NCBI GenBank assembly: GCA_018399355.1
Contig: JAGYOA010000002.1
Span: 1-45,547 of the forward strand
DNA length: 45,547 nucleotides
Direction: 5' to 3'
From: Candidatus Woesearchaeota archaeon
GTDB lineage: Archaea; Nanobdellota; Nanobdellia; Woesearchaeales; CG1-02-33-12
Shown: piece by piece, positions 5,031 to 40,668 of the stretch
Numbering within the stretch: the stretch's first letter is position 1
Layout: each line of letters begins with the position of its first letter
Program-made: the position numbers and the translations under genes
The notes under the pieces: generated by a model
What the model was told of the DNA's origin: nothing
The model's input: only the letters and a program-made list of their open reading frames with translations
Database searches by the model: none

Positions 5031-6662
5031 ATGCCCACAATAACACTTGATAAAAAAGATGTATTTAATTTAGTTGGAAAACAAGTTCCAGATGACAGGC
5101 TAAAGGACAGAATCTCAATGCTGGGAACAGACTTAGAAAAAGTAGATGATTTTGAAATTACAGTTGAGGTTTTTCCTAACAGGCCTGATTTATTGTCTGA
5201 AGAGGGGTTTGCAAGGGCATTAAGCTCATTTATAGGAGTAAAAACAGGATTAAGGAAATATGATGTAAAGAAATCTGATTTAAATGTTAAGATTGAAAAT
5301 TCTGTTGAGGATGTTAGGCCTGTTATAAGGTGCGCTGTGCTTAAGAATGTTAACTTAACAGATGAGGCAATAAAGAGCTTAATGCAGCTGCAGGAAAAAA
5401 TCCATTTAACCCATGGAAGAAAAAGAAAAAAGGTTGCAATTGGCGTTCATGATTTTGACAGGGTTAAGTTTCCCTTAACTTATAAGGCAGTTAAACCAAA
5501 TGAGGTTTCATTTGTTCCTTTAGGCATGGAAGAAGAAATGAATCTTTCTCATATATTATCAAGACATCCAAAAGGGAGAGATTATGCATTCTGCTTAGAG
5601 GGGTTGGAAAAATATCCAATAATAATAGATTCAAAAAATGATGTTGTTTCATTTCCGCCAATAATTAATGGTATTGTAACACAAGTAAGAGAGGAAACAA
5701 AAAACCTTTTTATTGATGTTACTGGAACTGATGTTAATGCTGTTACACAGGCATTAAATATCTTGGTTGCAAGCTTATCAGACAGAGGTGCAGAGATTTA
5801 TTCCCTTAATGTTAGTGGTGTTGTCAGCCCGGATTTAAGTCCTAGAAGAATGAATATTGATTTAGTATATGTTAATAAATTATTAGGCCTTAACTTAAAT
5901 CAAAAAGAATTTGAGGAGCTGCTTTCAAGGATGGGACTTGGTTATGATGAAGAAGTATTAATCCCTGCTTATAGAGGAGATATAATACATCCAGTTGATA
6001 TTGTTGAGGCAGTTGCAATTGCATACGGATTTGAAAATTTTAATCCTGAAATACCAAACCTTGCAACCATTGCAGAGGAAGATTCTTTTGAAAAATTCAA
6101 GACAAAGATTGCAAACATTTTTGTTGGAATGGGGATGATTGAAACAAATACTTATCACATTACAAACAAGGAAAATATCAACAAAAAAATGAATCTTGAG
6201 CTTAAATGCGTTGAGCTTTCAAATGCACTGACAACAGATTATAATGTTTTAAGGTCATGGATTATTCCAAGCTTGATTGATATTTTGAAAAATAATCGCA
6301 ACAGGGAATTTCCACAAAAGATTTTTGAGATGGGAATTTGTTTTAAGGAAAACAAGGATAAAGAGACAGGTGTAGAGGAGTTTACAAGACTGGCTGTTTT
6401 AATTTCTCATACAAAGGCAAACTTCACAGAGATAAAGCAAGTTTTGGATTATTTATTCAGGGCTTTGGATTTGAATTATGAGATTGAGAATACAGAGCAT
6501 TCAAGTTTTATTAAAGGAAGGGTTGGAAGAGTAATTGTTAATGACAAAAAATTGGCCTACATAGGAGAGATCTCGCCAGAGGTAATAACCAACTGGGAAT
6601 TAGAGATGCCAGTGGCCGCATTAGAATTAAACTTAACAGAGCTTTTTTCTTTAATAAATTAA
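5031..6662 (+). CDS. pheT: Phenylalanine--tRNA ligase beta subunit (archaeal type)
   Basis: 543 aa. The N-terminus MPTITLDKKDVFNLVG...FEITVEVFPNRPDLLSEEGFARAL is typical of archaeal PheT (B3/4 and B5 domains). It starts 2 nt after the pheS stop. Confidence 0.95.
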   Translation: MPTITLDKKDVFNLVGKQVPDDRLKDRISMLGTDLEKVDDFEITVEVFPNRPDLLSEEGFARALSSFIGVKTGLRKYDVKKSDLNVKIENSVEDVRPVIRCAVLKNVNLTDEAIKSLMQLQEKIHLTHGRKRKKVAIGVHDFDRVKFPLTYKAVKPNEVSFVPLGMEEEMNLSHILSRHPKGRDYAFCLEGLEKYPIIIDSKNDVVSFPPIINGIVTQVREETKNLFIDVTGTDVNAVTQALNILVASLSDRGAEIYSLNVSGVVSPDLSPRRMNIDLVYVNKLLGLNLNQKEFEELLSRMGLGYDEEVLIPAYRGDIIHPVDIVEAVAIAYGFENFNPEIPNLATIAEEDSFEKFKTKIANIFVGMGMIETNTYHITNKENINKKMNLELKCVELSNALTTDYNVLRSWIIPSLIDILKNNRNREFPQKIFEMGICFKENKDKETGVEEFTRLAVLISHTKANFTEIKQVLDYLFRALDLNYEIENTEHSSFIKGRVGRVIVNDKKLAYIGEISPEVITNWELEMPVAALELNLTELFSLIN

Positions 6663-6665
6663 AAA

Positions 6666-7319: not shown

Positions 7320-8166
7320 ACATCTCAGCCCTCTCCTTTATTTCATTAAGTGTTGGATAATCCGGAAAAGATTTTCCTTTTAAAACTAATTTTAGTTTAT
7401 CAACTATAAAATGCCTTACTTTTATTTGCTTTTTGAATTTAAGGTAAAACAATGAAATAAATATTAAAAATCTTATTGTTTTTTCTTTTTCAGCTACATA
7501 CAATGAATGTCTAAAAACAACATCTTTTGAAAGCCTTCTTTTAGGCAGGGTATAATAGTTTGTCGTAAGCAATATTTTTATCCCAAAATTTTCAAAACAG
7601 GAGAATGCAGTTAGAGTTGCATCTATTCTTCCTTTATTTGCAAAAACCAGTTCTTTGTCTGTTTTTTTGTATATTACTGAGTTTACAGGGATTTTTTTGT
7701 CAACAGATTCTGAAAATTTTTTGTATTCTTCAAGAAACTCTTTTAGGTTAGTCCATATTCTTGCATTTAGAACATAATTTTTCTTTTCTTTTCTTATTAT
7801 GCTTGTATTGTAGAATTGCTTCAGCTTTTGGTAAATAATGCTCTTTTTAAGTTTAGTTTCTCTTTCAATTTGTTTAATATTTTTTGGGCTTAATATTACA
7901 ATAAGTATTTTTATTCCATTTCCTGATAGTATATTTATAAGGTTAGGGTACTGTGATAGCAGATTTAGCAAAAGAGAACCGTGAGTTGTTTTTTTTGCTG
8001 TTATTCTGCCCCTGTATAATTTTATAAATTCCTTTTCTATGAGACTTTTGGTTGTTCTGTATATCTGCTTATCACTTTTTTTTACAGCATGAGCTATTTC
8101 ATTAATCTTTTTGTTTCCATTTGCAATCTGTTCAAGCACTCTTAATTCAGGTTTTGATAAGTTCAT
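7303..8166 (-). CDS. Winged-HTH regulator-like protein with large C-terminal domain (AbiEi-like candidate)
   Basis: The N-terminus LSKPELRVLEQIANGNKKINEIAHAVKKSDKQIYRTTKSLIEKEFI is a typical MarR/ArsR-like wHTH. A second wHTH-like segment lies around KNIKQIERETKLKKSIIYQKLKQF. It is translationally overlapped with the NTase gene. Confidence 0.5.
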   Translation of the reverse strand: MNLSKPELRVLEQIANGNKKINEIAHAVKKSDKQIYRTTKSLIEKEFIKLYRGRITAKKTTHGSLLLNLLSQYPNLINILSGNGIKILIVILSPKNIKQIERETKLKKSIIYQKLKQFYNTSIIRKEKKNYVLNARIWTNLKEFLEEYKKFSESVDKKIPVNSVIYKKTDKELVFANKGRIDATLTAFSCFENFGIKILLTTNYYTLPKRRLSKDVVFRHSLYVAEKEKTIRFLIFISLFYLKFKKQIKVRHFIVDKLKLVLKGKSFPDYPTLNEIKERAEMYDIKI

Positions 8167-8329
8167 ATTTCCATAAAAACATTACTTATTTATATACTTT
8201 TCGTATTTATATGGAAAAAAATAATAACCAAAAAGAAATTAGAGATGCTGGTGGATGTATTTGAATTAATTCCTAAATAATAAACCTTATAAACAAGTTC
8301 ATTAATTTAAACATTAAAGAGGTGGTTTT

Positions 8330-8528: not shown

Positions 8529-8972
8529 ATGAAAAAAATAATGCCCCCAACATACTTTATTGTTTTGCTTGTATTTTCTATATTCTTTCATTCCTTTTTT
8601 CCTTTAATTAAATTTTCTTATTTTCCTTACAATTATCTTGGTGTTTTGCTGATAGTCTTTGGAATCTTTCTTAACATTAAGGCAGACTCAATGTTTACAA
8701 AAAGCAGGACAACTGTTAAGCCGCATTTGATGCCGAGTTTTTTTCATGTTTCAGGCCCATTTAAGATAAGCAGGCACCCTATGTACTTGGGAATGTTCTT
8801 GATTTTGTTGGGAGCCGCATTAATCATGAGTTCTCTTGTAACATTTATTTTCTCCTTTTTGTTTGTAATTCTGATGAAAATTCTTTTTATTCCAGAAGAA
8901 GAGAAAAACATGGAAAAGGCCTTCGGAAAAAAATATTTAGATTACAAGAAAAAGGTAAGGCAGTGGATATGA
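8529..8972 (+). CDS. Isoprenylcysteine carboxyl / phospholipid methyltransferase family membrane protein
   Basis: ISRHPMYLGMFLILLG and EEEKNMEKAFGKKYLDYKKKV are the conserved ICMT/PEMT C-terminal motifs. The protein has 4 TM. Confidence 0.7.
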   Translation: MKKIMPPTYFIVLLVFSIFFHSFFPLIKFSYFPYNYLGVLLIVFGIFLNIKADSMFTKSRTTVKPHLMPSFFHVSGPFKISRHPMYLGMFLILLGAALIMSSLVTFIFSFLFVILMKILFIPEEEKNMEKAFGKKYLDYKKKVRQWI

Positions 8973-9021: not shown

Positions 9022-10383
9022 ATGATGAATGGCCTTGAAAAGAATGATAAATCAAATGGTGTGAACAAGCACCATAACCAAAATAAGAAGACTCAAAACC
9101 CCAAAAAATTTCTTTTTGTAACCCTTGACAGCCTCATAGCAGATATTGCATGGCGCGTTAAGAAAGAAGGGCACGAAGTAAGATATTATGTGAAAAACTC
9201 TGAAGACAAGGAGGTAGGTATGGGTCTAGTTGATATGGTTGAAGACTGGGAGAAAGAAATAGACTGGGCAGATATTATTGTTTTTGATGATGTTCTCGGC
9301 CAAGGCGAAAAAGCCCAAGAACTAAGAAGCAAAGGAAAGCTGGTCATAGGAGGAACCCCTTATACTGATAAATTAGAGGATGACAGAAATTTTGGACAAG
9401 AGGAATTAAGAAAATTTGGAATAAATATTCTTCCTTCAAAGGTATTCACAAACTTCGAAGAGGCAATACAATTTGTAAAAGAGAATCCTGAAAGGTATGT
9501 TTTGAAGCCTTGTGGAGAGGCTGCCAACCTTAAAGGGCTTCTTTTTATAGGAGAGGAAAATGATGGAAGGGATGTCATACAGGTTCTTAGTGATTATAGT
9601 AAGGCATGGTCAAAAAAAATTCCAGCTTTTCAATTACAAAAAAGAATATCTGGTGTTGAGATTGCAGTTGGAGCTTTTTTTAATGGAAAGAATTTTATCT
9701 ATCCTATAAATGTCAACTTTGAGCATAAAAAGCTATTTCCTGGTAATTTAGGACCTTCAACAGGCGAAATGGGAACATCAATGTTCTGGTCATGCCCTAA
9801 CAAGTTATTTAATATGACTCTGAAAAAATTTGAACCAAAGCTTGCAGAAGAGGGATATATTGGTTATATTGATTTGAATTGCATAGTCAACAGTAAGGGG
9901 ATTTATCCTCTAGAGTTTACAAGTAGGTTTGGGTATCCATGCGTTTTTATACAGGAAGAGGGAATGATTACTCCCATGGGTGATTTTTTGTATGAGCTTG
10001 CACAGGGAAATTCACCAAACTTAAAAGTAAGGTCAGGATTCCAGGTAGGTGTCAGGATTGTTGTTCCGCCCTTCCCCTTTACAGACAAGGAAACCTTTGA
10101 AGTTAAATCAAAAGATTCTATTATATACTTCAAAAAAAGTACGGAAGGAGTTCATATTGAGGATGTTAAGCTGGTGAATGATGAATGGGTCGTTACAGGA
10201 AATTCAGGAGTTGTTCTTGTTGTGTGCGGCTGCGGACAGACCATGCATCAGGCAAGAAAACAGGCCTATCAAAGAATTAAGAACATTTCTATACCTCATA
10301 TGTACTACAGGGATGATATAGGAGAGAGCTGGTTTGAGGACAGCGATAAATTGCATACATGGGGTTACCTCATAGAACAATAA
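9022..10383 (+). CDS. ATP-grasp protein, phosphoribosylamine--glycine ligase (PurD)-like, divergent
   Basis: YVLKPCGEAANLKG, QKRISGVEIAVGAFF, GPSTGEMGT (compare PurD GPNTGGMG) and YIGYIDLNCIV are arranged as in PurD. The N-domain GGREHA stretch is replaced by DSLIADIA. Confidence 0.55.
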   Translation: MMNGLEKNDKSNGVNKHHNQNKKTQNPKKFLFVTLDSLIADIAWRVKKEGHEVRYYVKNSEDKEVGMGLVDMVEDWEKEIDWADIIVFDDVLGQGEKAQELRSKGKLVIGGTPYTDKLEDDRNFGQEELRKFGINILPSKVFTNFEEAIQFVKENPERYVLKPCGEAANLKGLLFIGEENDGRDVIQVLSDYSKAWSKKIPAFQLQKRISGVEIAVGAFFNGKNFIYPINVNFEHKKLFPGNLGPSTGEMGTSMFWSCPNKLFNMTLKKFEPKLAEEGYIGYIDLNCIVNSKGIYPLEFTSRFGYPCVFIQEEGMITPMGDFLYELAQGNSPNLKVRSGFQVGVRIVVPPFPFTDKETFEVKSKDSIIYFKKSTEGVHIEDVKLVNDEWVVTGNSGVVLVVCGCGQTMHQARKQAYQRIKNISIPHMYYRDDIGESWFEDSDKLHTWGYLIEQ

Positions 10384-12897: not shown

Positions 12898-13572
12898 ATG
12901 GCAGGAAAAGATTGGTATGAGGCATTCAGTCAAAACATGAATCCCATATTCACAAAAAAAGATTTTGAGAATTATAAAAAAGGAGTTCTTAAGGATTTGA
13001 AATATTATGAAAAATATATTCCTAAAGGATCAAAAATTCTTGATGTAGGTTGTGGATTAGGATGTGAGGCTATTCCATTATCATCCTTAGGATATAAGGT
13101 TATAGGAGTAGATAATGACAAAAGAGTTGTTGAAGCAGCAAATCAAAACAGCAAAAACTTTGGAGGAGATGTACAAATCATTGAAGGAGATATTTTTAAT
13201 TTAGATGAATTATTTGATAAAGATTCATTTGATGCCTGTATTAGTGGAGGGGTTTTAGAACATTTCAAGAAAGAAGATGTGAGAAAACTTGTTGATTTGC
13301 AACTTAAACTGGCCCCATTGGTTATAGCTAATATGCCTGTGAAGACTAAAAAGTCGATGAAAGCTTATGGTTTTACAGAATCCAATGCATTAAATAATTT
13401 AGATAATAATGGAATTTATAGGAATTTCTGGTCTGAGGATGAGTGGGTGAATAAGGTATTAAAGGATTACAATATAGTTGAGCATTTTGTTAAGCCATGC
13501 GACCCTTCCATAGGGAACTTTGATGTAGTATATCTATTCATTAAAAGGAAAGTGGTTCTTTCTAAAGAATAA
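12898..13572 (+). CDS. Class I SAM-dependent methyltransferase
   Basis: Motif I is KILDVGCGLGCEAIPL. This is followed by the acidic loop VIGVDND and GGVLEHF. Confidence 0.85.
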   Translation: MAGKDWYEAFSQNMNPIFTKKDFENYKKGVLKDLKYYEKYIPKGSKILDVGCGLGCEAIPLSSLGYKVIGVDNDKRVVEAANQNSKNFGGDVQIIEGDIFNLDELFDKDSFDACISGGVLEHFKKEDVRKLVDLQLKLAPLVIANMPVKTKKSMKAYGFTESNALNNLDNNGIYRNFWSEDEWVNKVLKDYNIVEHFVKPCDPSIGNFDVVYLFIKRKVVLSKE

Positions 13573-13619
13573 AAATCTTTCTGAATTGAACATAATAAAA
13601 TTAATCTGTTAAAAGTATA

Positions 13620-13666
13620 TTACAAGCATTTTCTGGGCGTGGCCATTAACTTTAATGAAGGGCTTG
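13620..13666. repeat. Left copy of island-flanking direct repeat (att-like): an orphan, diverged duplicate of the 3' end of the radical-SAM gene
   Basis: 13620-13644 is identical to 20559-20583 (ttacaagcattttctgggcgtggcc). Counting the 46 aligned positions from 13621/20560, 41 are identical. The minus-strand translation NKPFIKVNGHAQKMLVIYF* mirrors the true C-terminus NKAKPFIKVDGHAQKMLVT*. Confidence 0.85.
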
Positions 13667-14749
13667 TTAAATAAACCTTTCTTTAAACGTTTCAAGATAG
13701 GTTAGAAGCAAAGGCAATAGTATTGGGCCAACAAAAATTCCAATAATGCCAAACATGCTTGCACCGCCTATAACTCCTATAATGACAAGTACTGGGCTTA
13801 CATTAGCCTTTGCCTTCACTATTTTAGCAAGCAAGATATTGTCAATCGTAGATATTATGAAAATACCGTAAAGCAATAAACCTATTCCTTTGCCCAAAAT
13901 CCAATAATTCTGCGAAAAATAGCCGCTTAAAATCAGATATAACGAAGCAGGAACCCATATGATAGACGTTCCAAGAAAAGGTATCAAAGCAAAGAAAGCT
14001 ATCAAAACTCCTGATAAAAGTGCAAAAGGAACACCGAATATGTAAAAACCTATAGCCCCGACAATTCCCTGGACTATTGCAACAAATAATTGTGCATAAA
14101 TTACAGTATGGGCAATATTTTCAAATTCAACAACAAGCCTTTTTTTTGTTTTGGATGTCATTGGAAGTATGTTGCCTATTTTTTTTAATATTTCATTATT
14201 ATCTTTTAGAATATAATATGTTATGACTATTGTAAGAAAAATTTGTGCTATTATAAGAGGAATACTTAAGATAATCTTTTTAATCTTCTCTTCTATCACT
14301 GGCAGATATATCTGCAGCTGTGTGTCAATACCATACCTTGATAAGTAATCTAAACTGAATTTTTCAGCTTGGTTAACAAGTGAACATACCGTTGACTCTT
14401 CGCTATTGCATGCGAATCCAAATAATGCTCCTTTTGCAACTGTATTTGATAACGAATTATAGAAATAATACCCTTGTTGTCCAATTCCGACTACTAAAAA
14501 AGTGAAGGGAATTAATATAAGAATTATAACAATTAATAAAGAAAGAATAATTGAAACAGATTCATTTGGTATCTTTTTTCTTATCTTTCTGCAGACAGGA
14601 AAAGAAATATATGCCAGAAGGGCGCTGCCTAAAATCATAATTATCACTGGCTGGATAAGTTTAAAAAATAGAAACAAAACTATTATGAAAAAGATAAATG
14701 GAACTATTCTTTGATATTGATTATTATTGTATGGTTTATCAATTGCCAT
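13667..14749 (-). CDS. AI-2E family transporter (PerM/UPF0118)
   Basis: 360 aa, about 8 TM. The topology and the GLLLYGIFIISTIDNILLAKIV and GVIGGASMFGIIGIFVGPILL segments are typical of the AI-2E/PerM family. Confidence 0.75.
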   Translation of the reverse strand: MAIDKPYNNNQYQRIVPFIFFIIVLFLFFKLIQPVIIMILGSALLAYISFPVCRKIRKKIPNESVSIILSLLIVIILILIPFTFLVVGIGQQGYYFYNSLSNTVAKGALFGFACNSEESTVCSLVNQAEKFSLDYLSRYGIDTQLQIYLPVIEEKIKKIILSIPLIIAQIFLTIVITYYILKDNNEILKKIGNILPMTSKTKKRLVVEFENIAHTVIYAQLFVAIVQGIVGAIGFYIFGVPFALLSGVLIAFFALIPFLGTSIIWVPASLYLILSGYFSQNYWILGKGIGLLLYGIFIISTIDNILLAKIVKAKANVSPVLVIIGVIGGASMFGIIGIFVGPILLPLLLTYLETFKERFI

Positions 14750-14835
14750 TGTATAAGATAAGTAATATTATTATTTATATATTTGCATACATCATTGTAT
14801 TTATAATAACAGATCAGAGGGTGTTATTTATCAGT

Positions 14836-15966
14836 TCATTTAACTGGCAACTCTAAATCAAAATGAAAATCCTTTTCCTTAAATAGTTTAATGCATGAAT
14901 CAACAACCTTAGCGTCGTAAAGTATGCCCCTATTCATCTGCAGTTCATCTAGTGCTTTATCGACTCCAAGAGCGGCCCTGTAAGGCCTATGGCTTGACAT
15001 TGCCTCAACCACATCTGCAACAGAAATTATTTTTGCTTCAGCCAGAGTTTGGCTACCTTTTAATCCTCTAGGATATCCTGACCCGTCAATTCGTTCGTGA
15101 TGCTGGTAAACAATATCTGCAATAGGCCATGGAAAATCAATATTCTTAAGAATATCATAAGAAGCCTGAACATGAGTCTTTATCAATGCATATTCAATAT
15201 CTGAAAGTTTTCCTGGTTTAGAAAGGATTTCTGATGGAATATGTATTTTTCCTAAATCATGTACAATCGCAGCTGTCCTGACTAACCTAACTCGATCTGA
15301 GGAATACTCCATCTCTGAAGCTATTGCAGCCGCTAAATGTGCAACACGCCGTTGGTGCCTTCCATTATAGAGGTCTTTCGCTTCAACAGTTGAGGCAAGA
15401 GCATCTACTGTAGAATATAATGATTTTTCAAGATCCTTGTGGCTACGCTCAAGCATCTCTTCTGAATGTTTGCGTTTTGTGATATCCTTACAAAATCCAA
15501 GGAATTTATCGCCTGAAAGCTTTACAGCATCAACTGACATATAAAATTCATGACCATCTGCATGCCTAAAAAGATATTCTCCATTAACTTTTTTTTCTTT
15601 CGCAAGTTTGCCAAATTCGCTCAATGCTGCGTCTCTCGAACCCGGCGCAGTAACGTCCATAATAGAAAGCCCCAATAATTCTTTTTTTGTATACCCTAAA
15701 AGATTGCAAGCTGCTGGATTCACATCTATATATTCTCCCTGACTATTTGCTACAAAAATTCCATCAGGGGCATTTTCAACATAAGAACGGAATTTCTCTT
15801 CTGAGTCTAATAATCTTTGATCCACCTTTCTGCACTCGGCGATACCTCTCCTTTCCGAATCTTTCAGTCCCTTCCCTGACAGGATACGCGCAGATACTGA
15901 TTTTTGTATCTCTTCTCTTACGTCTGTAGGAATATCTTTCCTTTTCATAATCTCTTCTAAAATCAT
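14836..15966 (-). CDS. PAS-domain sensor fused to an HD-GYP phosphohydrolase domain
   Basis: The PAS segment reads EKFRSYVENAPDGIFVANSQGEYIDVNPAACNLLGYTKKELLG...CKDITKRK. The HD-GYP segment carries HDLGKIHIP and HHERIDGSGYPRGL. Confidence 0.85.
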   Translation of the reverse strand: MILEEIMKRKDIPTDVREEIQKSVSARILSGKGLKDSERRGIAECRKVDQRLLDSEEKFRSYVENAPDGIFVANSQGEYIDVNPAACNLLGYTKKELLGLSIMDVTAPGSRDAALSEFGKLAKEKKVNGEYLFRHADGHEFYMSVDAVKLSGDKFLGFCKDITKRKHSEEMLERSHKDLEKSLYSTVDALASTVEAKDLYNGRHQRRVAHLAAAIASEMEYSSDRVRLVRTAAIVHDLGKIHIPSEILSKPGKLSDIEYALIKTHVQASYDILKNIDFPWPIADIVYQHHERIDGSGYPRGLKGSQTLAEAKIISVADVVEAMSSHRPYRAALGVDKALDELQMNRGILYDAKVVDSCIKLFKEKDFHFDLELPVK

Positions 15967-16069
15967 TTGATTTCTCCAAAAATTTCTTTTCTTTTCTTTC
16001 CATCTTTTCTAATCTACTCTCATATACTGTATTATAAATTAATCTTAAATACTTTACACCCTAAAAAAC

Positions 16070-16282
16070 CTAATCTTTTGACTCCTGGCACTTATTTCTT
16101 TCATAGGTGCATTTTTCACTGCAAATGCTGCTTAAGATTCCTTCACCGCAATCATGCACGCAATCAGTATACTCGCGCTCGCATGGGTCAGTTTGCGAAA
16201 TAAAAGTACAGCCATTTACCAAGGCAAGTGATGTAAGTAAAATTACCAAACCCAAAGTTGTTATAATTGTTGAATATTTCAT
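16070..16282 (-). CDS. Small Cys-rich putative lipoprotein
   Basis: Signal peptide with a lipobox-like LVNGC. Seven further Cys follow in 45 aa. GGAGGA lies 6 nt upstream of the ATG. Confidence 0.5.
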   Translation of the reverse strand: MKYSTIITTLGLVILLTSLALVNGCTFISQTDPCEREYTDCVHDCGEGILSSICSEKCTYERNKCQESKD

Positions 16283-16340
16283 TCTTATCCTCCATTATAG
16301 TTATTTATACTTGCTTAATCGCATGTAAATGATGTTTAAT

Positions 16341-16601
16341 CTAGTTTCTTCTTCGCATCAATGTTGCTGCAAGGACTGTGCCTGCAGCCATTCCAACTCC
16401 AGCGGCAATCAATACTGACCTTTCAGGGTTTTTTTGGATGTAGCCATCAATATTTCCCTTCATTCTTGTTGCATTTTCCTTTAAGAGAGCTATTTTTTCC
16501 CTGCCACCTTCACTCATGCTTTCAGCCTTGTCCATTATATTATCAACTCCATTATGCGTTCTCTGCCTCATACTTGAGATTTTATTTGTTTCATTTTTCA
16601 T
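16341..16601 (-). CDS. DUF883 (ElaB/YqjD)-like tail-anchored protein
   Basis: 86 aa. A helical N-part is followed by IQKNPERSVLIAAGVGMAAGTVLAATLMRRRN, matching the conserved DUF883 C-terminal anchor pattern. Confidence 0.55.
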   Translation of the reverse strand: MKNETNKISSMRQRTHNGVDNIMDKAESMSEGGREKIALLKENATRMKGNIDGYIQKNPERSVLIAAGVGMAAGTVLAATLMRRRN

Positions 16602-16612
16602 TTTTCACCTTT

Positions 16613-17104
16613 CTACTCGGCATTTGTTTCTCCAGGAGATGCCGAACTAGTATCTTTCTTGTTCTCTTTATCCCCTTCGGAAAATCTATAATGCCTTGTA
16701 ATTTTTATTTTAGCTGTATCTTCAATCACATCCCCTTTTTTGTCAGGCAGTAGCCTCATGTTATGGATGTCCATTCCCTGGATCTCTATCTCAACTTTCC
16801 TGATACTTGAGTGATTTGGTGTTAATACAATCGTTTTATGCTCAGGTCCCCATTTTTTTTCGAATGTCCCAGATGTATAATTGAACTTAGACAAAGGAAT
16901 ATCTGGGAGAGTTGAAAATTCTGCCTTCAAATAGATTATGTAGTCTCCATAAGTCATTATGGGGATTGTACCTTTTCCTTCTGATTCGCTTTTCTTTTCA
17001 AATTCATTTGCCTCTTCTCTGGGTATACAGTACAAACTGTCCTCTTTGTTTATACAGCCCCTTATTTCCTTGAGCTTATTTTCATTTGATACATCGTTTT
17101 CCAT
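16613..17104 (-). CDS. Hypothetical protein (beta-rich, acidic/Ser-rich tail)
   Basis: 163-aa ORF with GGAGGCG 8 nt upstream of the ATG. No motif recognised. Confidence 0.5.
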   Translation of the reverse strand: MENDVSNENKLKEIRGCINKEDSLYCIPREEANEFEKKSESEGKGTIPIMTYGDYIIYLKAEFSTLPDIPLSKFNYTSGTFEKKWGPEHKTIVLTPNHSSIRKVEIEIQGMDIHNMRLLPDKKGDVIEDTAKIKITRHYRFSEGDKENKKDTSSASPGETNAE

Positions 17105-17135
17105 TTTTACACGCCTCCAACTTTCTTAAAAATAC

Positions 17136-17225
17136 CTAAAAAATCAACATTAAAACCACTATCACTACTACAACTAATCCAATAAATCCAAGTATTCCTC
17201 CTTTGTTGTTATTGATAATTTTCAT
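17136..17225 (-). CDS. 29-aa single-TM micropeptide
   Basis: Not in the ORF track (under 60 aa). Sequence MKIINNNKGGILGFIGLVVVVIVVLMLIF*, preceded by AAGGAGGTGA 5 nt upstream of the ATG. Confidence 0.45.
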   Translation of the reverse strand: MKIINNNKGGILGFIGLVVVVIVVLMLIF

Positions 17226-17271
17226 GGTTTTCACCTCCTTATCATTTAATTAAATTATTTTTTGCTCAACC

Positions 17272-17601
17272 TTAAAGTGGTCCGGTAATGGTTGGCAGCA
17301 CCCAACTGACAATTGATGCAAAAATCCATACAACAATAGCTACAACCAAAGCTTTCAGCCAGCCCATACTATATAGGGTGCCAAGAGCAATAAGCCAGGC
17401 TATGCCTCCAATCACTGAAGCTATCCAACCTACTCCCAGGAAATATGATACAGTCGCAAATATTATTGCACCGATAAGTGCAGCCATTATTGCTGTGCCA
17501 AATCCCTCCTTTTCTCCAAACAGTTTTGTAGCCAGATAGATAATAATTCCTGATATGACCAAACTTATCAAAAATCCTATTAATGCTTCTAAAAATGCCA
17601 T
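17272..17601 (-). CDS. 4-TM membrane protein, phage-holin-family-4 / YvlD (DUF360)-like
   Basis: 109 aa. The GFGTAIMAALIGAIIF and GWLKALVVAIVVWIFASIVSWVL segments resemble the twice-repeated G-F-W-x-A motif of DUF360 proteins. AAGGAGGTG lies upstream of the ATG. Confidence 0.45.
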   Translation of the reverse strand: MAFLEALIGFLISLVISGIIIYLATKLFGEKEGFGTAIMAALIGAIIFATVSYFLGVGWIASVIGGIAWLIALGTLYSMGWLKALVVAIVVWIFASIVSWVLPTITGPL

Positions 17602-17702
17602 AAATGAACACCTCCTTTCTTCAATTTTTTAATCAATCATTTTCTCACAATGGAAAAAAATATAATCCATTGTGAAGCAATAAATCTTCTACAATGAAAC
17701 AT

Positions 17703-17822
17703 TTAAGTTTTCATTATTTTCTTTCCAACAGGCCTGTTTTTTACCATTCCTTTGCCACCTGCACTCTTTGCAGCCCTTTTTTTAGCTGCAGTCATTCTTC
17801 CGCCTCTACTTTTTTTTGCCAT
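17703..17822 (-). CDS. 39-aa highly basic peptide (KGG-like stress-peptide resemblance)
   Basis: Not in the ORF track. Sequence MAKKSRGGRMTAAKKRAAKSAGGKGMVKNRPVGKKIMKT*, with GGAGGTG 6 nt upstream of the ATG. Confidence 0.35.
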   Translation of the reverse strand: MAKKSRGGRMTAAKKRAAKSAGGKGMVKNRPVGKKIMKT

Positions 17823-17876
17823 TAAAAACACCTCCGTTCTTAATTATTTACTCTTATTGATTAATTAATTTCTTAT

Positions 17877-18779
17877 TTAATCAAAACATTCAATTACCTT
17901 TTGTTCAGCATCATCAAATGATTTTGCTTTATTTTTTGCATCATCTAGTGCCCTACTCCATACAGCTTTTGATATTGTATGGTCTGCATTTGGATTGTTG
18001 GTAACATCATGGCACATGTTCTTAGTAAGAACATAGACTTTTTCATCTGCAAACTTGCTACTTACCATAGCTGAACGCATAGTCTCTATCTTGGATTTGC
18101 ATTCTGGCTTGTCTGCGAGAACCGCAATCTGTTCATAATACACAATCTTTTTCTCAGCAAACCTGTATAGTGCGTGATTAATATTGTTTTCCCGTTCTAC
18201 AAAACCAGAACATAACTGATATGTGTTTGAGTATACCATTTTGTAATCTTTCAAACCAGCAACTTCCTTCTTAACATCATTGATCAGTACAACAAAGTCT
18301 TTATGGAGCTGAACCTGCTTAGCATCATCACTCAGCTGCACAGCATCATACCTGACTTCCCTTGCTTCCCTTGCGTTGGTTAACTGCAAATTAAGAGAAT
18401 CTATCTCATCAGACTGTGCATCTATATCATCAGATTGTTTCTGCGTGGCCATATAACCCCAAACAGAGCCAGCCAGCAAAAGGACAATCAAACCAACAAT
18501 TACTACCAGTCCAATAGAATCTGCAGAATCTCTTTTTCTATTAACTTCTTCTGCCCTATTGGTGCTTCTTCGTCTCTGAGCATCCATCAATACATCATCT
18601 CTTCTGCCTTTTGCTGCAACCCTGTTATCTGCTTTCAATCCTTCATTCCTGCCTTTTGCTGCAACTCTTGCATCCGCTCTTTTGTCAGCTGCTTCTCTTC
18701 TATCAGCAACTCTTTCCCTTTCTGCTATCCTCTCGCCAGGATAATCATTCTGTTTATGATACTCATATTTTTTTGTCAT
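17877..18779 (-). CDS. Single-pass membrane protein with basic repeat-containing N-terminus and about 190-aa external domain
   Basis: ORF 17877..18794. The ATG at 18794 is part of the SD GGAGGTGG, so the ATG at 18779 (MTKKYEYH...) is preferred. It has a tandem RVAAKGR-containing 15-aa repeat, a TM (IGLVVIVGLIVLLLAGSVWGY), and no family recognised. Confidence 0.5.
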   Translation of the reverse strand: MTKKYEYHKQNDYPGERIAERERVADRREAADKRADARVAAKGRNEGLKADNRVAAKGRRDDVLMDAQRRRSTNRAEEVNRKRDSADSIGLVVIVGLIVLLLAGSVWGYMATQKQSDDIDAQSDEIDSLNLQLTNAREAREVRYDAVQLSDDAKQVQLHKDFVVLINDVKKEVAGLKDYKMVYSNTYQLCSGFVERENNINHALYRFAEKKIVYYEQIAVLADKPECKSKIETMRSAMVSSKFADEKVYVLTKNMCHDVTNNPNADHTISKAVWSRALDDAKNKAKSFDDAEQKVIECFD

Positions 18780-18802
18780 TAAAACCACCTCCATGGTTTT
18801 GT

Positions 18803-18997
18803 TTATTCTACTGCTATTTTTCTTTTTTTACTAGTAAATTCACGGTAATATTGACCATTGACTGATTTTTTACAATAAGGACATACGAGCGTTAGACCCA
18901 CTAATGCAGGGCTTGTTATTTTTTTGTGGCAATGATTACATATGATTGTTTCCATCTTGTTCTTGAGTATTTTTTTTGATTTTGCCATTTTTATCAT
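18803..18997 (-). CDS. Small zinc-ribbon protein
   Basis: CNHC-x17-CPYC arrangement in 64 aa. The true start could be the second Met (MAKSKK). Confidence 0.45.
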   Translation of the reverse strand: MIKMAKSKKILKNKMETIICNHCHKKITSPALVGLTLVCPYCKKSVNGQYYREFTSKKRKIAVE

Positions 18998-19018
18998 CTC
19001 TTTATTGTTATATCTTAA

Positions 19019-19177
19019 TTATTGTAATCTATGTAAGTGTGTCAGCCGGCTTTTGATATTTGCGCGCTCTGCCTGCTCTTTTATCATACGGTTTTCAATT
19101 TTTCCTAAGGCATGCTCCCAATAAATTATCCTTCTGGTTAATTCATTATTATTGATATCTTCCATGATATTTTCCAT
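19019..19177 (-). CDS. 52-aa helical micro-ORF
   Basis: Not in the ORF track. Sequence MENIMEDINNNELTRRIIYWEHALGKIENRMIKEQAERANIKSRLTHLHRLQ*, with AAGGGGGGAT upstream of the ATG. Confidence 0.3.
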   Translation of the reverse strand: MENIMEDINNNELTRRIIYWEHALGKIENRMIKEQAERANIKSRLTHLHRLQ

Positions 19178-19716
19178 TTAGATCCCCCCTTAACCTAAAC
19201 TATAGATGTTGTAGTAAAAGATTTATTCTTCATAAAAATGCAGCTTACGATCTTCTATTTCCAACATAGACATCAGATCAACTTCATCTGAAGAATATAT
19301 CTTATGCTTACTATCTTCAAAAAGCAATTTTATCACCCCTTTTCCCTTTTTTGTATTTAGCTATTTAACTGATATCTACATTGAAAACACTTAACATCCA
19401 CTCTACACACTAGGACGGACTGTCTAGCATATTTCTGGATTAGGTAGTATTAATGGGCCGATACAGTTATAGCCATTAAGACCATCAAGACTACTAAAAC
19501 CAAAATGGTTGACATTTTTTTTGTATATCTCATTTTTTGCCTCAGAGCCTTCTGCTTTAATATCAATTAATAATAACATAATTGGATATTTGATTACTGC
19601 CTATCAACTACTTCCCTCTCAACCTGTATATAGTATATTCTTGAAGTTCTTATGCCCTTTGTAGATATTTTAAAGAGATTAATAGAAATCGGTTGATAAT
19701 GTTAACCTGTTGATAA

Positions 19717-19739
19717 GCAGAAAAGAGGTTATACCTCTT
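19717..19739 (-). terminator. Hairpin plus T-rich tract downstream of the Lrp-family gene
   Basis: Perfect 7-bp stem aagaggt / acctctt (19723-19729 / 19733-19739) with a 3-nt loop. On the minus strand it is followed by TTCTGC, giving the run CTCTTTTCT. Confidence 0.3.
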
Positions 19740-19759
19740 AAAGTCTTGCTGTTTGACCC

Positions 19760-20320
19760 TTAATGAGAATGATTTAGGAATAAATCTTTTGGCGAAAAGT
19801 CTTTTTTATCAATTATTTCATGCAAGATTCCAAGTGGACTATGCGAGATAATCTTTTGAACAGAAAAAGTGTATACTCCATTAATTGTAACTTCATCCGC
19901 AAACTTAGTCTGGACTTCTGAGATATACCTCTCTTTCTGGGCTATGTCTCTAAAGGCCAGTAATAAAATATGTGAAGCGTTTTCATCAGCAACTCTGTAA
20001 GCGTCAATTACATAAGGTGCTTTAGAAATCCTTTCAGAAATCTGATCGTCTGAAAAAGATTTCCACATATTAGGAGAAAGGCGAATAATCATAAGCGCCA
20101 TGATATTAATCCCTATCTTTTTAAAATCAATAATAGGAATATAACCTTTGATAATGCCGCATTTCTCTAATTTTTCCCTTATCTTAAATATTGCCTGCGG
20201 AGAAAGTTTCATGCTTTTAGCAATATCACTATCTGGAATGTTCTTCAGGTCCAGTATTTTTTTAAGAACATTTCTGTCATTCTCCGTGAGCTTAGGCAAA
20301 TCAGGATCTCTTTTTTCCAT
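19760..20320 (-). CDS. Lrp/AsnC-family transcriptional regulator
   Basis: The HTH segment is LTENDRNVLKKILDLKNIPDSDIAKSMKLSPQAIFKIREKLEKCGIIKGY, followed by a RAM-like C-domain. The ATG at 20326 lies inside the SD GGAGGATG, so the ATG at 20320 (MEKRD...) is preferred. Confidence 0.75.
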   Translation of the reverse strand: MEKRDPDLPKLTENDRNVLKKILDLKNIPDSDIAKSMKLSPQAIFKIREKLEKCGIIKGYIPIIDFKKIGINIMALMIIRLSPNMWKSFSDDQISERISKAPYVIDAYRVADENASHILLLAFRDIAQKERYISEVQTKFADEVTINGVYTFSVQKIISHSPLGILHEIIDKKDFSPKDLFLNHSH

Positions 20321-20553
20321 AAACATCCTCCAAAATTAAGCTATATATATAATCATTTAAACCTTATTAATTTTTTGTTTTTTATTTATAAGCTGCCTGT
20401 AAATCTTATTTTGGCCAAAATGTGAACTTTTTGTTTGTTTGCCTTATTTTTTCTTTCAGTTTTGTTAGTTTAGAAATACTTATCCTTCCATAGTTTATCC
20501 ACTAAAATTATTTAACATAACAAAAATTATTTTGTTAAAAGTTTTATTTATTA

Positions 20554-21633
20554 TTATGTTACAAGCATTTTCTGGGCGTGGCCGTCCACTTTAATAAAAG
20601 GCTTGGCCTTATTTATCCATGCGCCAAACTTGTGTAGTTGTTCATACTTTGTTATCTTTTTTTCCTTGAGAATTCTTTTTGCTGTTTTTGGGCCTATTCC
20701 TGGAATCCTTATTAGCTCATCATAGCTTGCTTCATTTATGTCAATCGGTTTGTCAAATTTATGCATTGCAATGGCCATCTTTGGATCTTTATTTGGCAGC
20801 ATTCCATCCTCCATAACATCATAAAATTCTTTTACACTATAATTATAGTCTCTCATAAGAAAATCAGCATTGTAAAGATGAGTTTCTCTTTTCTTTTTCT
20901 CTGGTTTTTGATTTTCAAGAGGAGTTCCTTTAACAGGGGTAAATGCAGAAAAATAAACTCTTCTTAGCTCAAGCTTTTTGTATTCCCAATCAGCCATTTT
21001 TAAGACATCCTTATCAGTTGATATTTTGTTTAAAATTATCTGTGTTGTCTGTCCTGAACCAAGGTTCATTCTTGATATCCATGCCTGCCTTTTCAAAAGG
21101 TCATTTTTGTAATCCTTGCACGTGCTTATCTCAGAAAGAGAGCTTTTGTTTGGTGATTCTATATTGACACTTAATCTGTTTGAAATTTCAGATGCCTGCT
21201 TTACAAGGTCATAAGAAGTTCCAGGAAGAATCTTGAAATGAACATAGCCATGAAACTTATACTTGAATCTTAAAATCCTTACAGCATCAAGCATCTTTTC
21301 AGTTATAATATCAGGCTCTTTTGAAACAGCAGAACTGAGAAAAAGTCCTTCTACAGCAAGATTTTTTCTTAAATAATCAAATAAGGAAGCAAGCTCTTCT
21401 GGCTCATAATCTGCTTTTCTTTTTTTGCAATGCGTTGAATTCTCACAGTACTTACAGTCAAAAGAGCAGCTGTTTTCCATTAATGTTTTGAAAATTCTGC
21501 ATGTTTTGTGCTCTGCCTTTGCATAATATATCCCTCCGAGGCCCTGCTTTACAGTTACCTCGCACATTTTAGGCCCGCAACTGTCATAATGGCCAGCTTT
21601 TCCGAGAATTCTTGCCTTTTCAAGAGTATTCAT
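20554..21633 (-). CDS. Radical SAM protein with C-terminal helix-hairpin-helix (putative DNA modification/repair radical SAM family)
   Basis: Has the CSFDCKYC (CxxxCxxC) cluster, the N-terminus LEKARILGKAGHYDSCGP, and a C-terminal HhH (YDELIRIPGIGPKTAKRIL). This architecture matches the TIGR03916-type family as I remember it. Confidence 0.75.
   Translation of the reverse strand: MNTLEKARILGKAGHYDSCGPKMCEVTVKQGLGGIYYAKAEHKTCRIFKTLMENSCSFDCKYCENSTHCKKRKADYEPEELASLFDYLRKNLAVEGLFLSSAVSKEPDIITEKMLDAVRILRFKYKFHGYVHFKILPGTSYDLVKQASEISNRLSVNIESPNKSSLSEISTCKDYKNDLLKRQAWISRMNLGSGQTTQIILNKISTDKDVLKMADWEYKKLELRRVYFSAFTPVKGTPLENQKPEKKKRETHLYNADFLMRDYNYSVKEFYDVMEDGMLPNKDPKMAIAMHKFDKPIDINEASYDELIRIPGIGPKTAKRILKEKKITKYEQLHKFGAWINKAKPFIKVDGHAQKMLVT
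20559..20605. repeat. Right copy of island-flanking direct repeat (att-like), forming the functional 3' end of the radical-SAM gene
   Basis: See the left copy. It encodes ...KPFIKVDGHAQKMLVT* on the minus strand. Confidence 0.85.
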
Positions 21634-25401: not shown

Positions 25402-26016
25402 ATGGAAGAAAAAGTGCTTATTGACAGGGAAACGCTGAAGGCCATAGCAGTGGATACAAGAATTAACATACTTAAGCTTCTTTCCAACAAAAGCTATACT
25501 TTAAGCGATATTGCTGATATGCTTGGACTTGGTGCATCAACAGTAAAGGAGCATTTAGATATTCTTGTAAAGGCAAAACTGGTAAAAAAAGAAAACACAG
25601 AGAGAAAGTGGAAGTATTACTCTTTAACATTTAAGGGAAGGCGCTTTATAGAGCCAAAAGAAGTCAAGGTTTTGTTTGCATTCATAACAACATTAATTGC
25701 TGCGGTAGGAACAGGATTTGTTTTTGCAAAAAGGTTCATTTTGAACGGAAGTCAAAGATTAATGGCTGCAGCACCTGAAATGTCAAGGATTAATGCCATG
25801 GATGCAGTTGAGGAAGGAGTACTAGCAAAAGGGGCAGAAGAGCTTCCTGTAGCTGCTCAGGAAGTAGTTTCCGAAGGATTACATATATCATTGTCTAATC
25901 CTTCAATCATTATGCTCATAGCGCTTTTGGTGCTTATAGCTTTAAGTGCTTTTCTTTTGGGGAATTTGCTTAAGAAGCCCCAGATTATAATAAATAAAAA
26001 AGGTGATAAAAAATGA
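25402..26016 (+). CDS. ArsR-type winged-HTH protein with C-terminal TM anchors
   Basis: The wHTH is LKAIAVDTRINILKLLSNKSYTLSDIADMLGLGASTVKEHLDILVKAKLV. There are two hydrophobic helices, FAFITTLIAAVGTGFVFA and IIMLIALLVLIALSAFLLGNLL. Confidence 0.7.
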   Translation: MEEKVLIDRETLKAIAVDTRINILKLLSNKSYTLSDIADMLGLGASTVKEHLDILVKAKLVKKENTERKWKYYSLTFKGRRFIEPKEVKVLFAFITTLIAAVGTGFVFAKRFILNGSQRLMAAAPEMSRINAMDAVEEGVLAKGAEELPVAAQEVVSEGLHISLSNPSIIMLIALLVLIALSAFLLGNLLKKPQIIINKKGDKK

Positions 26017-40461: not shown

Positions 40462-40667
40462 GGCTTTTTTTCACCACCTTTGGTTTTTAAGACAGTCAGT
40501 ATTCTTGCGACAGTCTTTTTTATCACCTTTACTTGCCCAGGGCTCTTTGGATTAGTTCCTGTTGCTATCTGGGCATTGTGCTTTATCAGCTCTTTTTTTA
40601 GTTCTTCTAGTTTTGAATTTAATTCATCAATACTCATTGATTCGATTTCTTTGATTTTAAGTGCCAT
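40458..40667 (-). CDS. rpl29: 50S ribosomal protein L29 (uL29)
   Basis: MALKIKEIESMSIDELNSKLEELKKELIKHNAQIATG. The ATG at 40665-40667 lies 1 nt downstream of the rps3 stop codon. The track ORF start at 40883 is rejected (see the rejected list). Confidence 0.85.
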   Translation of the reverse strand: MALKIKEIESMSIDELNSKLEELKKELIKHNAQIATGTNPKSPGQVKVIKKTVARILTVLKTKGGEKKP

Positions 40668-40668
40668 T

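Follow-up and report, generated by a model that had tools for sequence, protein, structure and literature searches.

A native gene cluster between two copies of a radical-SAM gene end in a Woesearchaeal genome

The window considered here, a stretch of 45,547 nucleotides at the start of contig JAGYOA010000002.1 from a Candidatus Woesearchaeota archaeon, carries a gene for a radical-SAM protein with a C-terminal helix-hairpin-helix (HhH) domain (20554..21633, minus strand), the 3' end of which is present twice. The protein is related to TIGR03916 (putative DNA modification/repair radical SAM protein), with a score below that model's cutoff, and is well conserved in Woesearchaeota, with 58-87% identity across full-length homologues. 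The right copy of the repeat, D_R (20510..20605, minus strand), consists of the gene end, its stop codon and ~44 nt of downstream non-coding DNA, and is the true 3' end of the open reading frame, reading ...GHAQKMLVT before the stop. The left copy, D_L (13585..13666, minus strand), is an orphan that reads ..KPFIKVNGHAQKMLVIYF up to a stop codon, its translation ending in ...NKPFIKVNGHAQKMLVIYF, and lies directly after the stop codon (13667-13669) of a gene for an AI-2E family permease. D_L has no start codon and is therefore a pseudogene fragment; after its reading frame come 24 nt with homology to D_R's non-coding tail, and 12 nt separate its downstream edge from the stop codon of a convergent gene for a class I SAM-dependent methyltransferase (12898..13572, plus strand), for which no close relative was found among GTDB species genomes. 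A sequence-only reading of this DNA had rightly identified the right copy as the authentic C-terminus and the left copy as a displaced orphan past the AI-2E stop.

The copies share the exact 25-mer ttacaagcattttctgggcgtggcc, found at 13620-13644 and again at 20559-20583 in the same orientation, as that reading had reported; it took this run as the core of a repeat of 46 positions. The repeat is real, but the extent given was too short. In a gapped alignment the homology covers 13585-13666 and 20510-20605 (82 vs 96 nt), with 10 mismatches, a 1-nt indel and a 13-nt indel, at a score of 92 vs 22 +/- 3 for shuffles; it thus takes in the final 47 coding nt of the radical-SAM/HhH gene and another 35-49 nt of non-coding DNA beyond the stop codon. 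The 13-nt indel is an insertion (AATAATAAATAAA) in D_R, and a closely similar insertion stands at the same place in the nearest relative, L001. Within the window the repeat is confined to these two sites, as self-comparison had been expected to show: a repeat search returned one two-copy family (13609-13666 / 20548-20605, 84% identical) and no third copy, blastn of the interval 13560-20620 against the whole window turned up no significant repeat in which the interval takes part other than this pair (E 3e-13), and comparison of the window with itself recovered it at E 2e-12. Terminal inverted repeats were not found at the ends of the interval, the inverted-repeat score being 28 vs 24 +/- 3 for shuffles.

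The called genes between the two copies are, as had been stated, all on the minus strand. The first of them, HTH188 (19760..20326), encodes an Lrp/AsnC-like winged-helix regulator, and a motif near the promoter, upstream of HTH188, is conserved across genomes. A spacer of 128 nt (20392..20519), which in L001 is only 10 nt long, lies between D_R and this conserved promoter region. Then come two small open reading frames, u52 and the zinc-ribbon protein zn64 (18803..19177; orthologues of both in L001 and L012, of zn64 also in L018 and L019), and u305 (17877..18794; orthologues in L001, L018 and L019), a helical protein with one membrane anchor, translation of which probably begins at the second ATG (18779), preceded by a GGAGGTG motif. 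These are followed by u42 and mem109 (17272..17831; orthologues of both in L001, of mem109 in L019), the latter a small membrane protein that matches holin_4_2 weakly; by u163 (16613..17104), a conserved protein of unknown function 76-85% identical to its orthologues in L001, L016 and L019; and by a small protein with a membrane anchor and a weak match to DUF883 (ElaB/YqjD-like) (16341..16601; orthologues in the same three). The two largest proteins of unknown function gave structure models of low confidence (pLDDT 45 and 55), that of u305 being predicted, at this low confidence, as all-helical with a membrane anchor. A variable slot (14836..16282) holds a PAS + HD-GYP phosphodiesterase gene and a 70-aa Cys-rich lipoprotein-like open reading frame; its genes are among the most G+C-rich in the interval and are missing from the clusters of L012, L016, L019 and L038. 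The last gene, that for the AI-2E family permease (13667..14749), is intact down to the final residue.

The interval is a conserved native Woesearchaeal cluster, running from the Lrp/AsnC-like regulator through small proteins (zinc-ribbon, membrane and stress-type in its middle genes) to the AI-2E permease. The regulator, 70-95% identical to the best 120 homologues listed, and the permease, 62-78% identical to the best 120 listed, are both core Woesearchaeal genes. In L001 the same genes follow in the same order and orientation through the DUF883 gene, where the L001 contig stops, before the left junction. The full cluster, regulator to AI-2E, is present in the same order in L019; it is recognised by gene order and gene sizes in L038, and in part in L012 and L016, and in all four the flanks are unrelated. 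The gene upstream of the regulator differs in L012, L018, L019, L038, L040 and L045, the radical-SAM gene occupying that place only in the window and in L001. No repeats flank the cluster in the three genomes tested for them (L012, L019 and L038), nor does the cluster have conserved ends in other genomes. DNA identity to L001 is 85% for the cluster and 81-86% for the right flank, so that the two are similarly diverged, as expected for joint vertical descent. The insertion would probably predate the split from the L001 organism.

The composition of the interval is close to that of the host and within the host's range, and the contrast in G+C drawn in the sequence-only reading was overstated. 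Interval genes have a G+C of 0.362 vs 0.333 +/- 0.033 for the other genes of the window, and a GC3 of 0.318 vs 0.281 +/- 0.042 (p 0.02-0.04 for the composition contrasts); ribosomal-protein genes in the window attain the interval's G+C values. The tetranucleotide distance, which had been proposed as a further check, is no higher across the interval than elsewhere in the window. The strong Shine-Dalgarno motifs that had been pointed out are indeed enriched, in 7 of 11 interval genes vs 5 of 43 elsewhere (p = 0.001), and a similar excess is seen in the orthologous clusters of L001 and L019, with a weaker one in L038.

An insertion of the cluster at this site is supported by L003, in which both flanks of the interval are collinear with those of the window, in the same relative orientations, and the interval is missing. 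The common markers are an ArsR-like gene (o25402), u200, the radical-SAM gene, a PEMT gene and the PheRS-beta end. The stretch from the radical-SAM gene to the PEMT gene differs further in L003, by a serpin gene and by four genes of the window (methyltransferase, MFS transporter, o10409 and GARS-like); because of these differences, and because its radical-SAM protein is only 73% identical to the window's, L003 offers no base-precise attB. A base-precise empty site was not found in the related genomes compared, which counts against the explanation preferred below, and the core pattern was absent from the JGI metagenomes. In this organism's lineage the cluster has come to be located within the final 47 nt of the radical-SAM/HhH gene. 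The sequence-only reading was right in placing an insertion, accompanied by a second gene end, at the 3' end of this gene; the view that the inserted DNA is a decayed or trans-mobilised element is not supported.

The collinearity of L003 bears also on the reading in which the left copy has nothing to do with an insertion and is a chance match, a functional downstream element common to two genes, or what an unrelated deletion left of a second radical-SAM paralogue. Such an origin would suit two features of the repeat: the homology takes in non-coding DNA downstream of both genes, possibly a terminator-like element, and there is a single sharp junction only, the homology setting in abruptly with the first base beyond the AI-2E stop codon. 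It is very improbable all the same. The alignment outscores shuffles by ~20 standard deviations, and its frame is that of the last 15 codons of the gene; neither a terminator-like structure nor an Rfam match was found; the motif was not seen downstream of AI-2E genes or upstream of regulator genes in the other genomes inspected; and the synteny of L003 puts the radical-SAM gene end beside the left flank ancestrally.

The earlier finding that no recombinase is encoded between the copies stands after wider searching. None was detected in 10 interval open reading frames (Pfam, PHROGs and NCBIfam) or in 20 flanking ones (Pfam), and a Woesearchaeal Xer-like recombinase, used as a tblastn query, gave no match in the window (best E 0.16). 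Split integrases and mobile-element hallmark genes were found neither in the interval nor elsewhere in the 45-kb window, and replication, virion and conjugation genes are lacking from the interval, on which PHROGs gave no functional match. Scans of IMG/VR with u305, the regulator and the core pattern returned nothing, a phage collection gave no match to the interval, and a plasmid collection gave only generic HD-GYP-domain matches. A trans-acting recombinase may be encoded outside the 45-kb window.

A direct repeat located at a protein gene's 3' end is a typical mark of archaeal elements that integrate by means of an integrase, and 14 of 68 thaumarchaeal elements are cited for the closest known system (PMC6563490). 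The locus resembles such elements in that direct repeats flank the insert, one copy completing the target gene, in that the C-terminal tail and stop codon of the target have possibly been changed, and in that the orphan copy lies beside the old downstream neighbour. A site-specific integrative element with a replacement gene end in its attP, its integrase lost or acting in trans and the cluster its cargo or domesticated remnant, would account for that arrangement and for the exact 25-nt run. It would account too for the orphan tail (..MLVIYF), which is nearer the family's usual C-terminus (..MLxEF, ..EFLY) than the ..MLVT of the present gene, as expected if the element supplied a new stop codon, and a hot spot is hinted at by L022, where this gene end is duplicated as well. 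The five coding differences between the copies all lie on one side of the perfect 25-nt run, which thereby has the look of a crossover core; this, like the typical position of the repeats, counts against the explanation preferred below. Mismatches are present at both sides of the run, and where 82 nt are ~88% identical a run of 25 nt is by our estimate not unusual; it does not have to mark a crossover core and may be just the longest such run in the alignment.

We consider an integrative element unlikely. Unlike integrase-driven archaeal elements, the interval holds no tyrosine, serine or SSV-type integrase and is a vertically inherited cellular cluster of core genes with native composition, which elsewhere has neither repeats nor conserved ends; viral and phage relatives are lacking, and the plasmid matches are generic. 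The repeat, imperfect at only ~88% identity and 82-96 nt long, exceeds archaeal att sites, which are quoted as 8-69 bp, and three other such scars, with 1-3 kb inserted, are likewise without an integrase. In light of a conserved native cluster without any integrase, the locus is better read as a rearrangement scar than as a decayed mobile element.

The explanation to which we incline, at somewhat better than even likelihood, is that the native cluster was inserted into the radical-SAM gene end by host recombination or repair, with duplication of the target end and no site-specific integrase. The insertion left two copies of an 82-96-nt target piece (gene end plus downstream DNA), of which the one adjoining the gene body keeps the radical-SAM gene complete and the one adjoining the old downstream neighbour, on the methyltransferase side, is a dead fragment. 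The scar has no present function, and the cluster works as an ordinary multi-gene unit. Two routes can be envisaged, the first being slightly preferred. A DNA piece with the cluster and a homologous radical-SAM gene end might have recombined inside the chromosomal gene end, either as a circle, through one Campbell-type crossover, or as a linear piece undergoing homology-facilitated illegitimate recombination; the sharp joint between the AI-2E stop and the orphan would then be the sole illegitimate junction. Alternatively, template switching during replication might have copied the cluster into the site with duplication of the target, or a staggered break might have been followed by fill-in.

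Both forms of the first route have been described experimentally in naturally transformable bacteria; we know of no demonstration in DPANN archaea. The locus is like homology-facilitated recombination in that one end of the insert lies in a homologous gene end and the other junction, AI-2E stop to orphan, is without homology. No dedicated recombinase would be needed, and conserved genes would be the anchors: the repeat is a stretch of conserved gene that donor and recipient would share, and other scars use the conserved genes ABCE1 and PheRS-beta. In classical homology-facilitated events, however, anchors are usually 150 nt or more, and often recipient DNA is deleted where a duplicate might have been left, whereas the anchor here is 82-96 nt, a duplicate remains and the donor is only hypothetical. 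A further point against this route is that the donor must already have had the radical-SAM gene and the cluster adjacent. For the second route, template switching of the FoSTeS/MMBIR type can copy a distant segment into a site and duplicate tens to hundreds of nt of target; had it acted here, the parental cluster would be expected as a second copy at another place in the genome, at least initially.

Transposons and casposons also duplicate their targets; these duplications are short and of fixed length, ~14-15 bp for casposons, and are accompanied by terminal inverted repeats and a transposase or Cas1. The locus is like such insertions in that a copy of the target sequence stands on either side of an insert at the 3' end of a gene, and casposons are found at the 3' end of ef-2 or of other protein genes (PMC6563490, PMC4779613). 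Unlike these, it has a duplication of 82-96 nt and no terminal inverted repeats, and Pfam, PHROGs and NCBIfam detected no transposase or Cas1 domain in the interval.

Similar gene-end scars occur elsewhere. Three more integrase-free insertions with a duplicated gene end were found, at PheRS-beta in the window, at ABCE1 in L016 and at an HTH gene in L024, with duplications of 48-168 nt and 1-3 kb of inserted DNA. L003 has an orphan PheRS-beta gene end, the inserted DNA not being visible there. In L022 the end of the same radical-SAM gene forms a tandem triplication (~68-nt unit, three copies, nothing between), the simplest product of FoSTeS/MMBIR-type slippage. At the scar described here 4 of 6 differences between the functional and the orphan copy fall at third codon positions; pooled over four scars, differences number 12/7/18 at codon positions 1/2/3 (18 of 37 at the third, p = 0.046, a weak test), and this lean fits copies that diverged while both were still coding.

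The array in L022 is exactly what would be required if the gene end and the DNA downstream of it had first been duplicated in tandem, by slippage or unequal exchange, and the cluster had later landed between the copies by illegitimate recombination, the spot between tandem copies being a harmless landing site. This sequence of events is nonetheless decidedly improbable: two events are required, the second of which must hit the copy boundary because the cluster sits exactly between the copies, and the scars at L016, L024 and PheRS-beta would each need the same coincidence.

The finding of similar integrase-free scars suggests that the process may be recurrent. At least 4 footprints (the PheRS-beta, ABCE1, HTH and radical-SAM genes) lie in ~0.5 Mb of related sequence, and the smallest inserted modules are 1-kb nucleotidyltransferase/HTH cassettes, the largest a 7-kb core operon. 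Tentatively, and with more doubt than confidence, one may suppose that Woesearchaeota, and perhaps DPANN archaea generally, gain or move modules into the 3' ends of conserved genes, regenerating the gene end, by an integrase-independent or an unrecognised trans-acting route. If true, these reduced genomes would have a general mode of genome flux that has so far gone undescribed.

It is routine to interpret an interval bounded by repeats at a gene end as a mobile element that has integrated. Here a footprint like that of a mobile element surrounds a core, vertically inherited cluster without a recombinase, and island callers based on repeats would mislabel it. The conserved Woesearchaeal cluster, with its conserved strong Shine-Dalgarno sites, is now defined and merits functional study. 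The mobile elements of DPANN archaea are poorly known, and if the scars reflect one process they would provide a testable handle on the reshuffling of gene order in these archaea and on the spread of small accessory modules, the nucleotidyltransferase/HTH pairs, among them.

The 25-mer ttacaagcattttctgggcgtggcc occurs exactly at 13620-13644 and again at 20559-20583, so that the direct repeat described in the sequence-only reading is real. A repeat search of the window placed the two sites in a two-copy family (13609-13666 and 20548-20605, 84% identical) and returned no other non-low-complexity family of that size flanking genes in the same way. Gapped local alignment widens the homology to 13585-13666 versus 20510-20605, with 10 mismatches and indels of 1 and 13 nt, defining a repeat of 82-96 nt, ~88% identical, which scores 92 as against 22 +/- 3 for shuffles. 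When interval and window were compared with the window by blastn, this pair (E 3e-13 to 2e-12) was the sole significant repeat involving the interval. From the extent of the gapped alignment, it follows that the duplicated unit is made up of 47 terminal coding nt of the radical-SAM/HhH gene 20554..21633(-), the stop codon, and a further 35-49 nt downstream that are non-coding. The left copy is therefore, as had been proposed, a displaced end of this gene: it lacks a start codon, begins at the base just after the stop codon of the AI-2E permease gene (13667-13669), reads KPFIKVNGHAQKMLVIYF up to a stop codon, and has its far edge 12 nt from the stop codon of the convergent methyltransferase gene. 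An empty site reconstructed by joining 13573-13644 to 20584 onward reads KVDGHAQKMLVIYF and a stop codon, and adjoins the methyltransferase gene.

The 25-nt run has mismatches to either side and need not be a crossover core, because a run of such length is, by estimate, not unusual in 82 nt at ~88% identity; the crossover-core reading was kept after gapped alignment as possible but unnecessary. That the copies are alike by chance, or through some shared functional element, is very improbable; terminator and promoter scans found none at the orphan left copy. Terminal inverted repeats were not found at the interval ends, and tRNA and Rfam scans of the window gave no match, and hence no tRNA-type target. 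Between the right copy and the promoter region of the regulator gene lies a 128-nt stretch (20392-20519) that resembles no other part of the window and none of the fetched loci of relatives; the closest relative, L001 (GCA_028711925.1), has 10 nt there.

Insertion between the copies most likely took place, to judge from L003, a relative's locus whose radical-SAM protein is 73% identical to that of the window. Five markers of the window lie there in one order, with orientations that match after a simple flip: an ArsR-like gene (65% to window 25402-26016), a relative of u200, the radical-SAM gene, a PEMT gene (74% to window 8529-8972) and a C-terminal fragment of PheRS-beta. No cluster stands between the radical-SAM and PEMT genes, and because L003 is collinear without it, the two flanks of the interval would have been ancestral neighbours. 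L003 does not amount to a base-precise empty site: a serpin gene is present there, and on its left side the window carries four genes more. Relatives of the methyltransferase among 185,579 GTDB species genomes are only 28-49% identical and belong to unrelated taxa; no empty site was therefore obtainable by that route. A degenerate 23-nt core pattern had no match in JGI metagenomes or IMG/VR, and no neighbour is shared with the window by any of 18 radical-SAM loci from JGI metagenomes (44-73% identity), nor by loci L041-L044 (71%), which were compared by gene lists only.

The gene tails also bear on the event. Members of the family usually end in ..KRQKMLxEF and L003 ends in ..EFLY, and the orphan tail, ..MLVIYF, retains an aromatic end. 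The working radical-SAM genes of the window and L001 end in ..MLVT and ..MLV, respectively, a common 10-13-nt insertion having introduced early stop codons. L001 has the radical-SAM-to-regulator junction too, which suggests either that this junction predates the split between window and L001 or that L001 represents the donor-type arrangement; the contigs of L001 and of a further relative, L002, end inside the cluster, before the left junction.

The chromosome segment that makes up the window is Woesearchaeal (Nanoarchaeota, DPANN). It includes the genes of PheRS alpha and beta, a GARS-like gene and an apparent cluster of ribosomal-protein genes. Most of the "repeat families" returned by the repeat search are low-complexity, pyrimidine-rich repeats of the plus strand (30000-30100, 35800-36000, 40650-40830 and 41500-41720), which probably correspond to lysine/glutamate-rich tails of minus-strand-encoded proteins in this putative ribosomal-protein region. 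The interval's genes all lie on the minus strand, as the gene list confirms. The Lrp/AsnC-like regulator (19760..20326) comes first, and the others encode small ORFs, including a zinc-ribbon protein, a 305-aa helical membrane-anchored protein (u305), a 109-aa membrane protein (mem109), a 163-aa unknown protein (u163), a DUF883-like protein, a 70-aa Cys-rich ORF, a PAS + HD-GYP protein and the AI-2E permease (13667..14749). The listed start of u305 (MEVVLM..., window 18779-18794) contains ATGGAGGTGG, and because this is kept as a Shine-Dalgarno site upstream of the orthologues in L001 and in two loci with the cluster elsewhere, L019 and L038, translation probably starts at the second ATG, at 18779. 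The PAS + HD-GYP gene and Cys-rich ORF (14836-16282) form a variable slot of the cluster, missing in L012, L016, L019 and L038. Both rank with the interval's highest genes in G+C, their matches to plasmid-collection DNA are bacterial HD-GYP genes only, and the slot may have been acquired later, on its own.

Searches of the interval ORFs with Pfam, PHROGs and NCBIfam, and of 20 flanking ORFs with Pfam, detected no domain of a recombinase or transposase and none for replication, virion or conjugation functions, which bears out the earlier failure to recognize a recombinase by eye. Neither u163 nor u305 matched PDB sequences, and their AlphaFold single-sequence models (pLDDT 45 and 55, respectively) were too poor for a fold search. 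The Woesearchaeal locus L018 carries a Xer-like tyrosine recombinase gene, 13821-14366 (-) and upstream to ~14650, directly after its u305 homologue; called as 181 aa in a frame open for ~275 aa, it lies near the locus end, at or close to the contig start, where the remaining cluster would be expected. As a query, this recombinase had no match in the window.

Five counts argue that the interval is not foreign. First, the regulator is 70-95% and the AI-2E permease 62-78% identical to their respective 120 best-listed homologues, levels equal to or above the radical-SAM gene's own; no AI-2E homologue above 78% was among the matches listed. Second, the cluster occurs elsewhere. L019, a 939-kb JGI contig, has regulator, zinc ribbon, u305-like gene, mem109, u163, a 113-aa gene, DUF883, a 101-aa gene and AI-2E between an aldehyde dehydrogenase side and TBP; in L038 the cluster keeps this order, with a HerA-like side on one flank and a DDE_3 fragment on the other, and L012 and L016 have part of it. 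The regulator's upstream neighbour varies among L012, L018, L019, L038, L040 and L045, and is the radical-SAM gene in the window and L001 only. Repeats flanking the orthologous cluster were not found in L012, L019 or L038, nor, across genomes, was any conserved motif at the cluster ends besides the regulator's promoter-proximal motif. The DDE_3 (IS630-like) transposase fragment of L038 (8894-9403 (-)), also seen in L039, is convergent on AI-2E, 35 nt from its stop codon, and is a further indication of change at the downstream edge of the cluster.

Third, DNA identity to L001 is 85% in the cluster and 81-86% in the right flank, and protein identities are alike within and beyond the interval. 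Fourth, in composition the interval stays inside the host's range, with a mean gene G+C of 0.362 versus 0.333 +/- 0.033 and no rise in tetranucleotide distance. On these values a case for foreign origin built on composition was rejected. Shine-Dalgarno motifs are indeed enriched (7 of 11 interval genes versus 5 of 43; p = 0.001). The excess recurs in the orthologous clusters, alike in L001 and L019 and weaker in L038, and marks internal cistrons of a conserved unit. Fifth, mobile relatives are lacking: IMG/VR scans with u305 and the regulator gave nothing, a phage collection had no match to the interval, and a plasmid collection gave generic HD-GYP-domain matches only.

In its footprint the interval looks like the attL/attR of archaeal elements whose insertion sites are the 3'-distal parts of protein genes, and the sequence-only reading had invoked a site-specific integrative element, decayed or mobilized in trans. 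Such an element would explain why the 25-nt run is perfect and why the tail was swapped, and a trans-acting recombinase could lie beyond 45 kb of sequence; but the recombinase that defines such elements, their hallmark genes and a foreign character were each sought and not found, leaving this origin unlikely. Of that reading, the insertion is supported and the mobile element is not. Transposons and casposons differ in having inverted repeats and a short fixed duplication, both absent here.

Similar integrase-free scars recur in ~0.5 Mb of fetched loci. In the window itself the 3' end of PheRS-beta (5031..6662+), at 6583-6669, is repeated 1.6 kb downstream at 8222-8317, where the orphan reads IITKKKLEMLVDVFELIPK and two stop codons (48-nt core, 79% identity; local score 47 versus 23 +/- 3.4 for shuffles). 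These copies flank two low-G+C minus-strand genes (6666-8166), for a DUF6036 nucleotidyltransferase and a TrmB-like HTH protein, with no integrase. L003 has an orphan PheRS-beta C-terminus, NWKLEMPVAALELNLTELYELLKQ with its stop codon, at 9638-9709 (-); it adjoins a GH15 gene, lacks PheRS homology upstream, borders unrelated DNA and lies 160 nt from the contig end, and may mark a recent insertion at the PheRS-beta gene end in another genome. L016 (13378-13438 and 14444-14503), like L017, repeats the final 61 nt of the essential ABCE1/RLI gene, through the stop codon, 1 kb downstream (90% identity, E 2e-16); these copies flank a 106-aa ORF and a Pol-beta-type nucleotidyltransferase, without integrase. 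In L024 the 3' end of an HTH_24 gene lies in a 168-nt repeat (5791-5956 and 2635-2797; 82%, E 4e-39) around ~3 kb encoding a Bro-N protein, a scramblase, a 129-aa ORF and an HTH + Pol-beta nucleotidyltransferase, again without integrase; the radical-SAM gene of this locus stands between two paralogous genes of the 23S_rRNA_IVP family.

In L022 (11054-11235) the end of a radical-SAM homologue (65% identical), ~13 codons plus a T-rich tail (~68 nt), stands three times in tandem, the third copy degenerate, with nothing inserted between. A two-step origin of the interval, by tandem duplication and then insertion exactly between the copies, is quite improbable. Differences between functional and orphan copies fall at third codon positions in 4 of 6 cases in the window and 18 of 37 pooled (p = 0.046). 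This lean lends weak support to copies having diverged while both were protein-coding, that is, to donor/recipient gene-end recombination, and disfavours simple post-duplication decay, which would not yield it.

The architecture, in which gene body, repeat, inserted DNA, repeat and old neighbour follow one another, can arise by site-specific integration, by homology-anchored insertion or by target-duplicating copy-in. In the homology-anchored route, a single crossover or homology-facilitated insertion would use the conserved gene end as anchor, and in the copy-in route the event itself would duplicate the target. We favour a recombinase-independent route over site-specific integration, because the content is core DNA without a recombinase, because the repeat is long and imperfect (archaeal att sites span 8-69 bp; PMC6563490), and because the same architecture recurs integrase-free. 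The interval is a real feature and a variant of a known footprint, and it works like homology-anchored or repair-mediated insertion of native DNA. The case is a caution for island prediction; the work defines a conserved regulator-to-AI-2E cluster, and hints at a recurrent, integrase-free route of insertion at the ends of conserved genes in Woesearchaeota.
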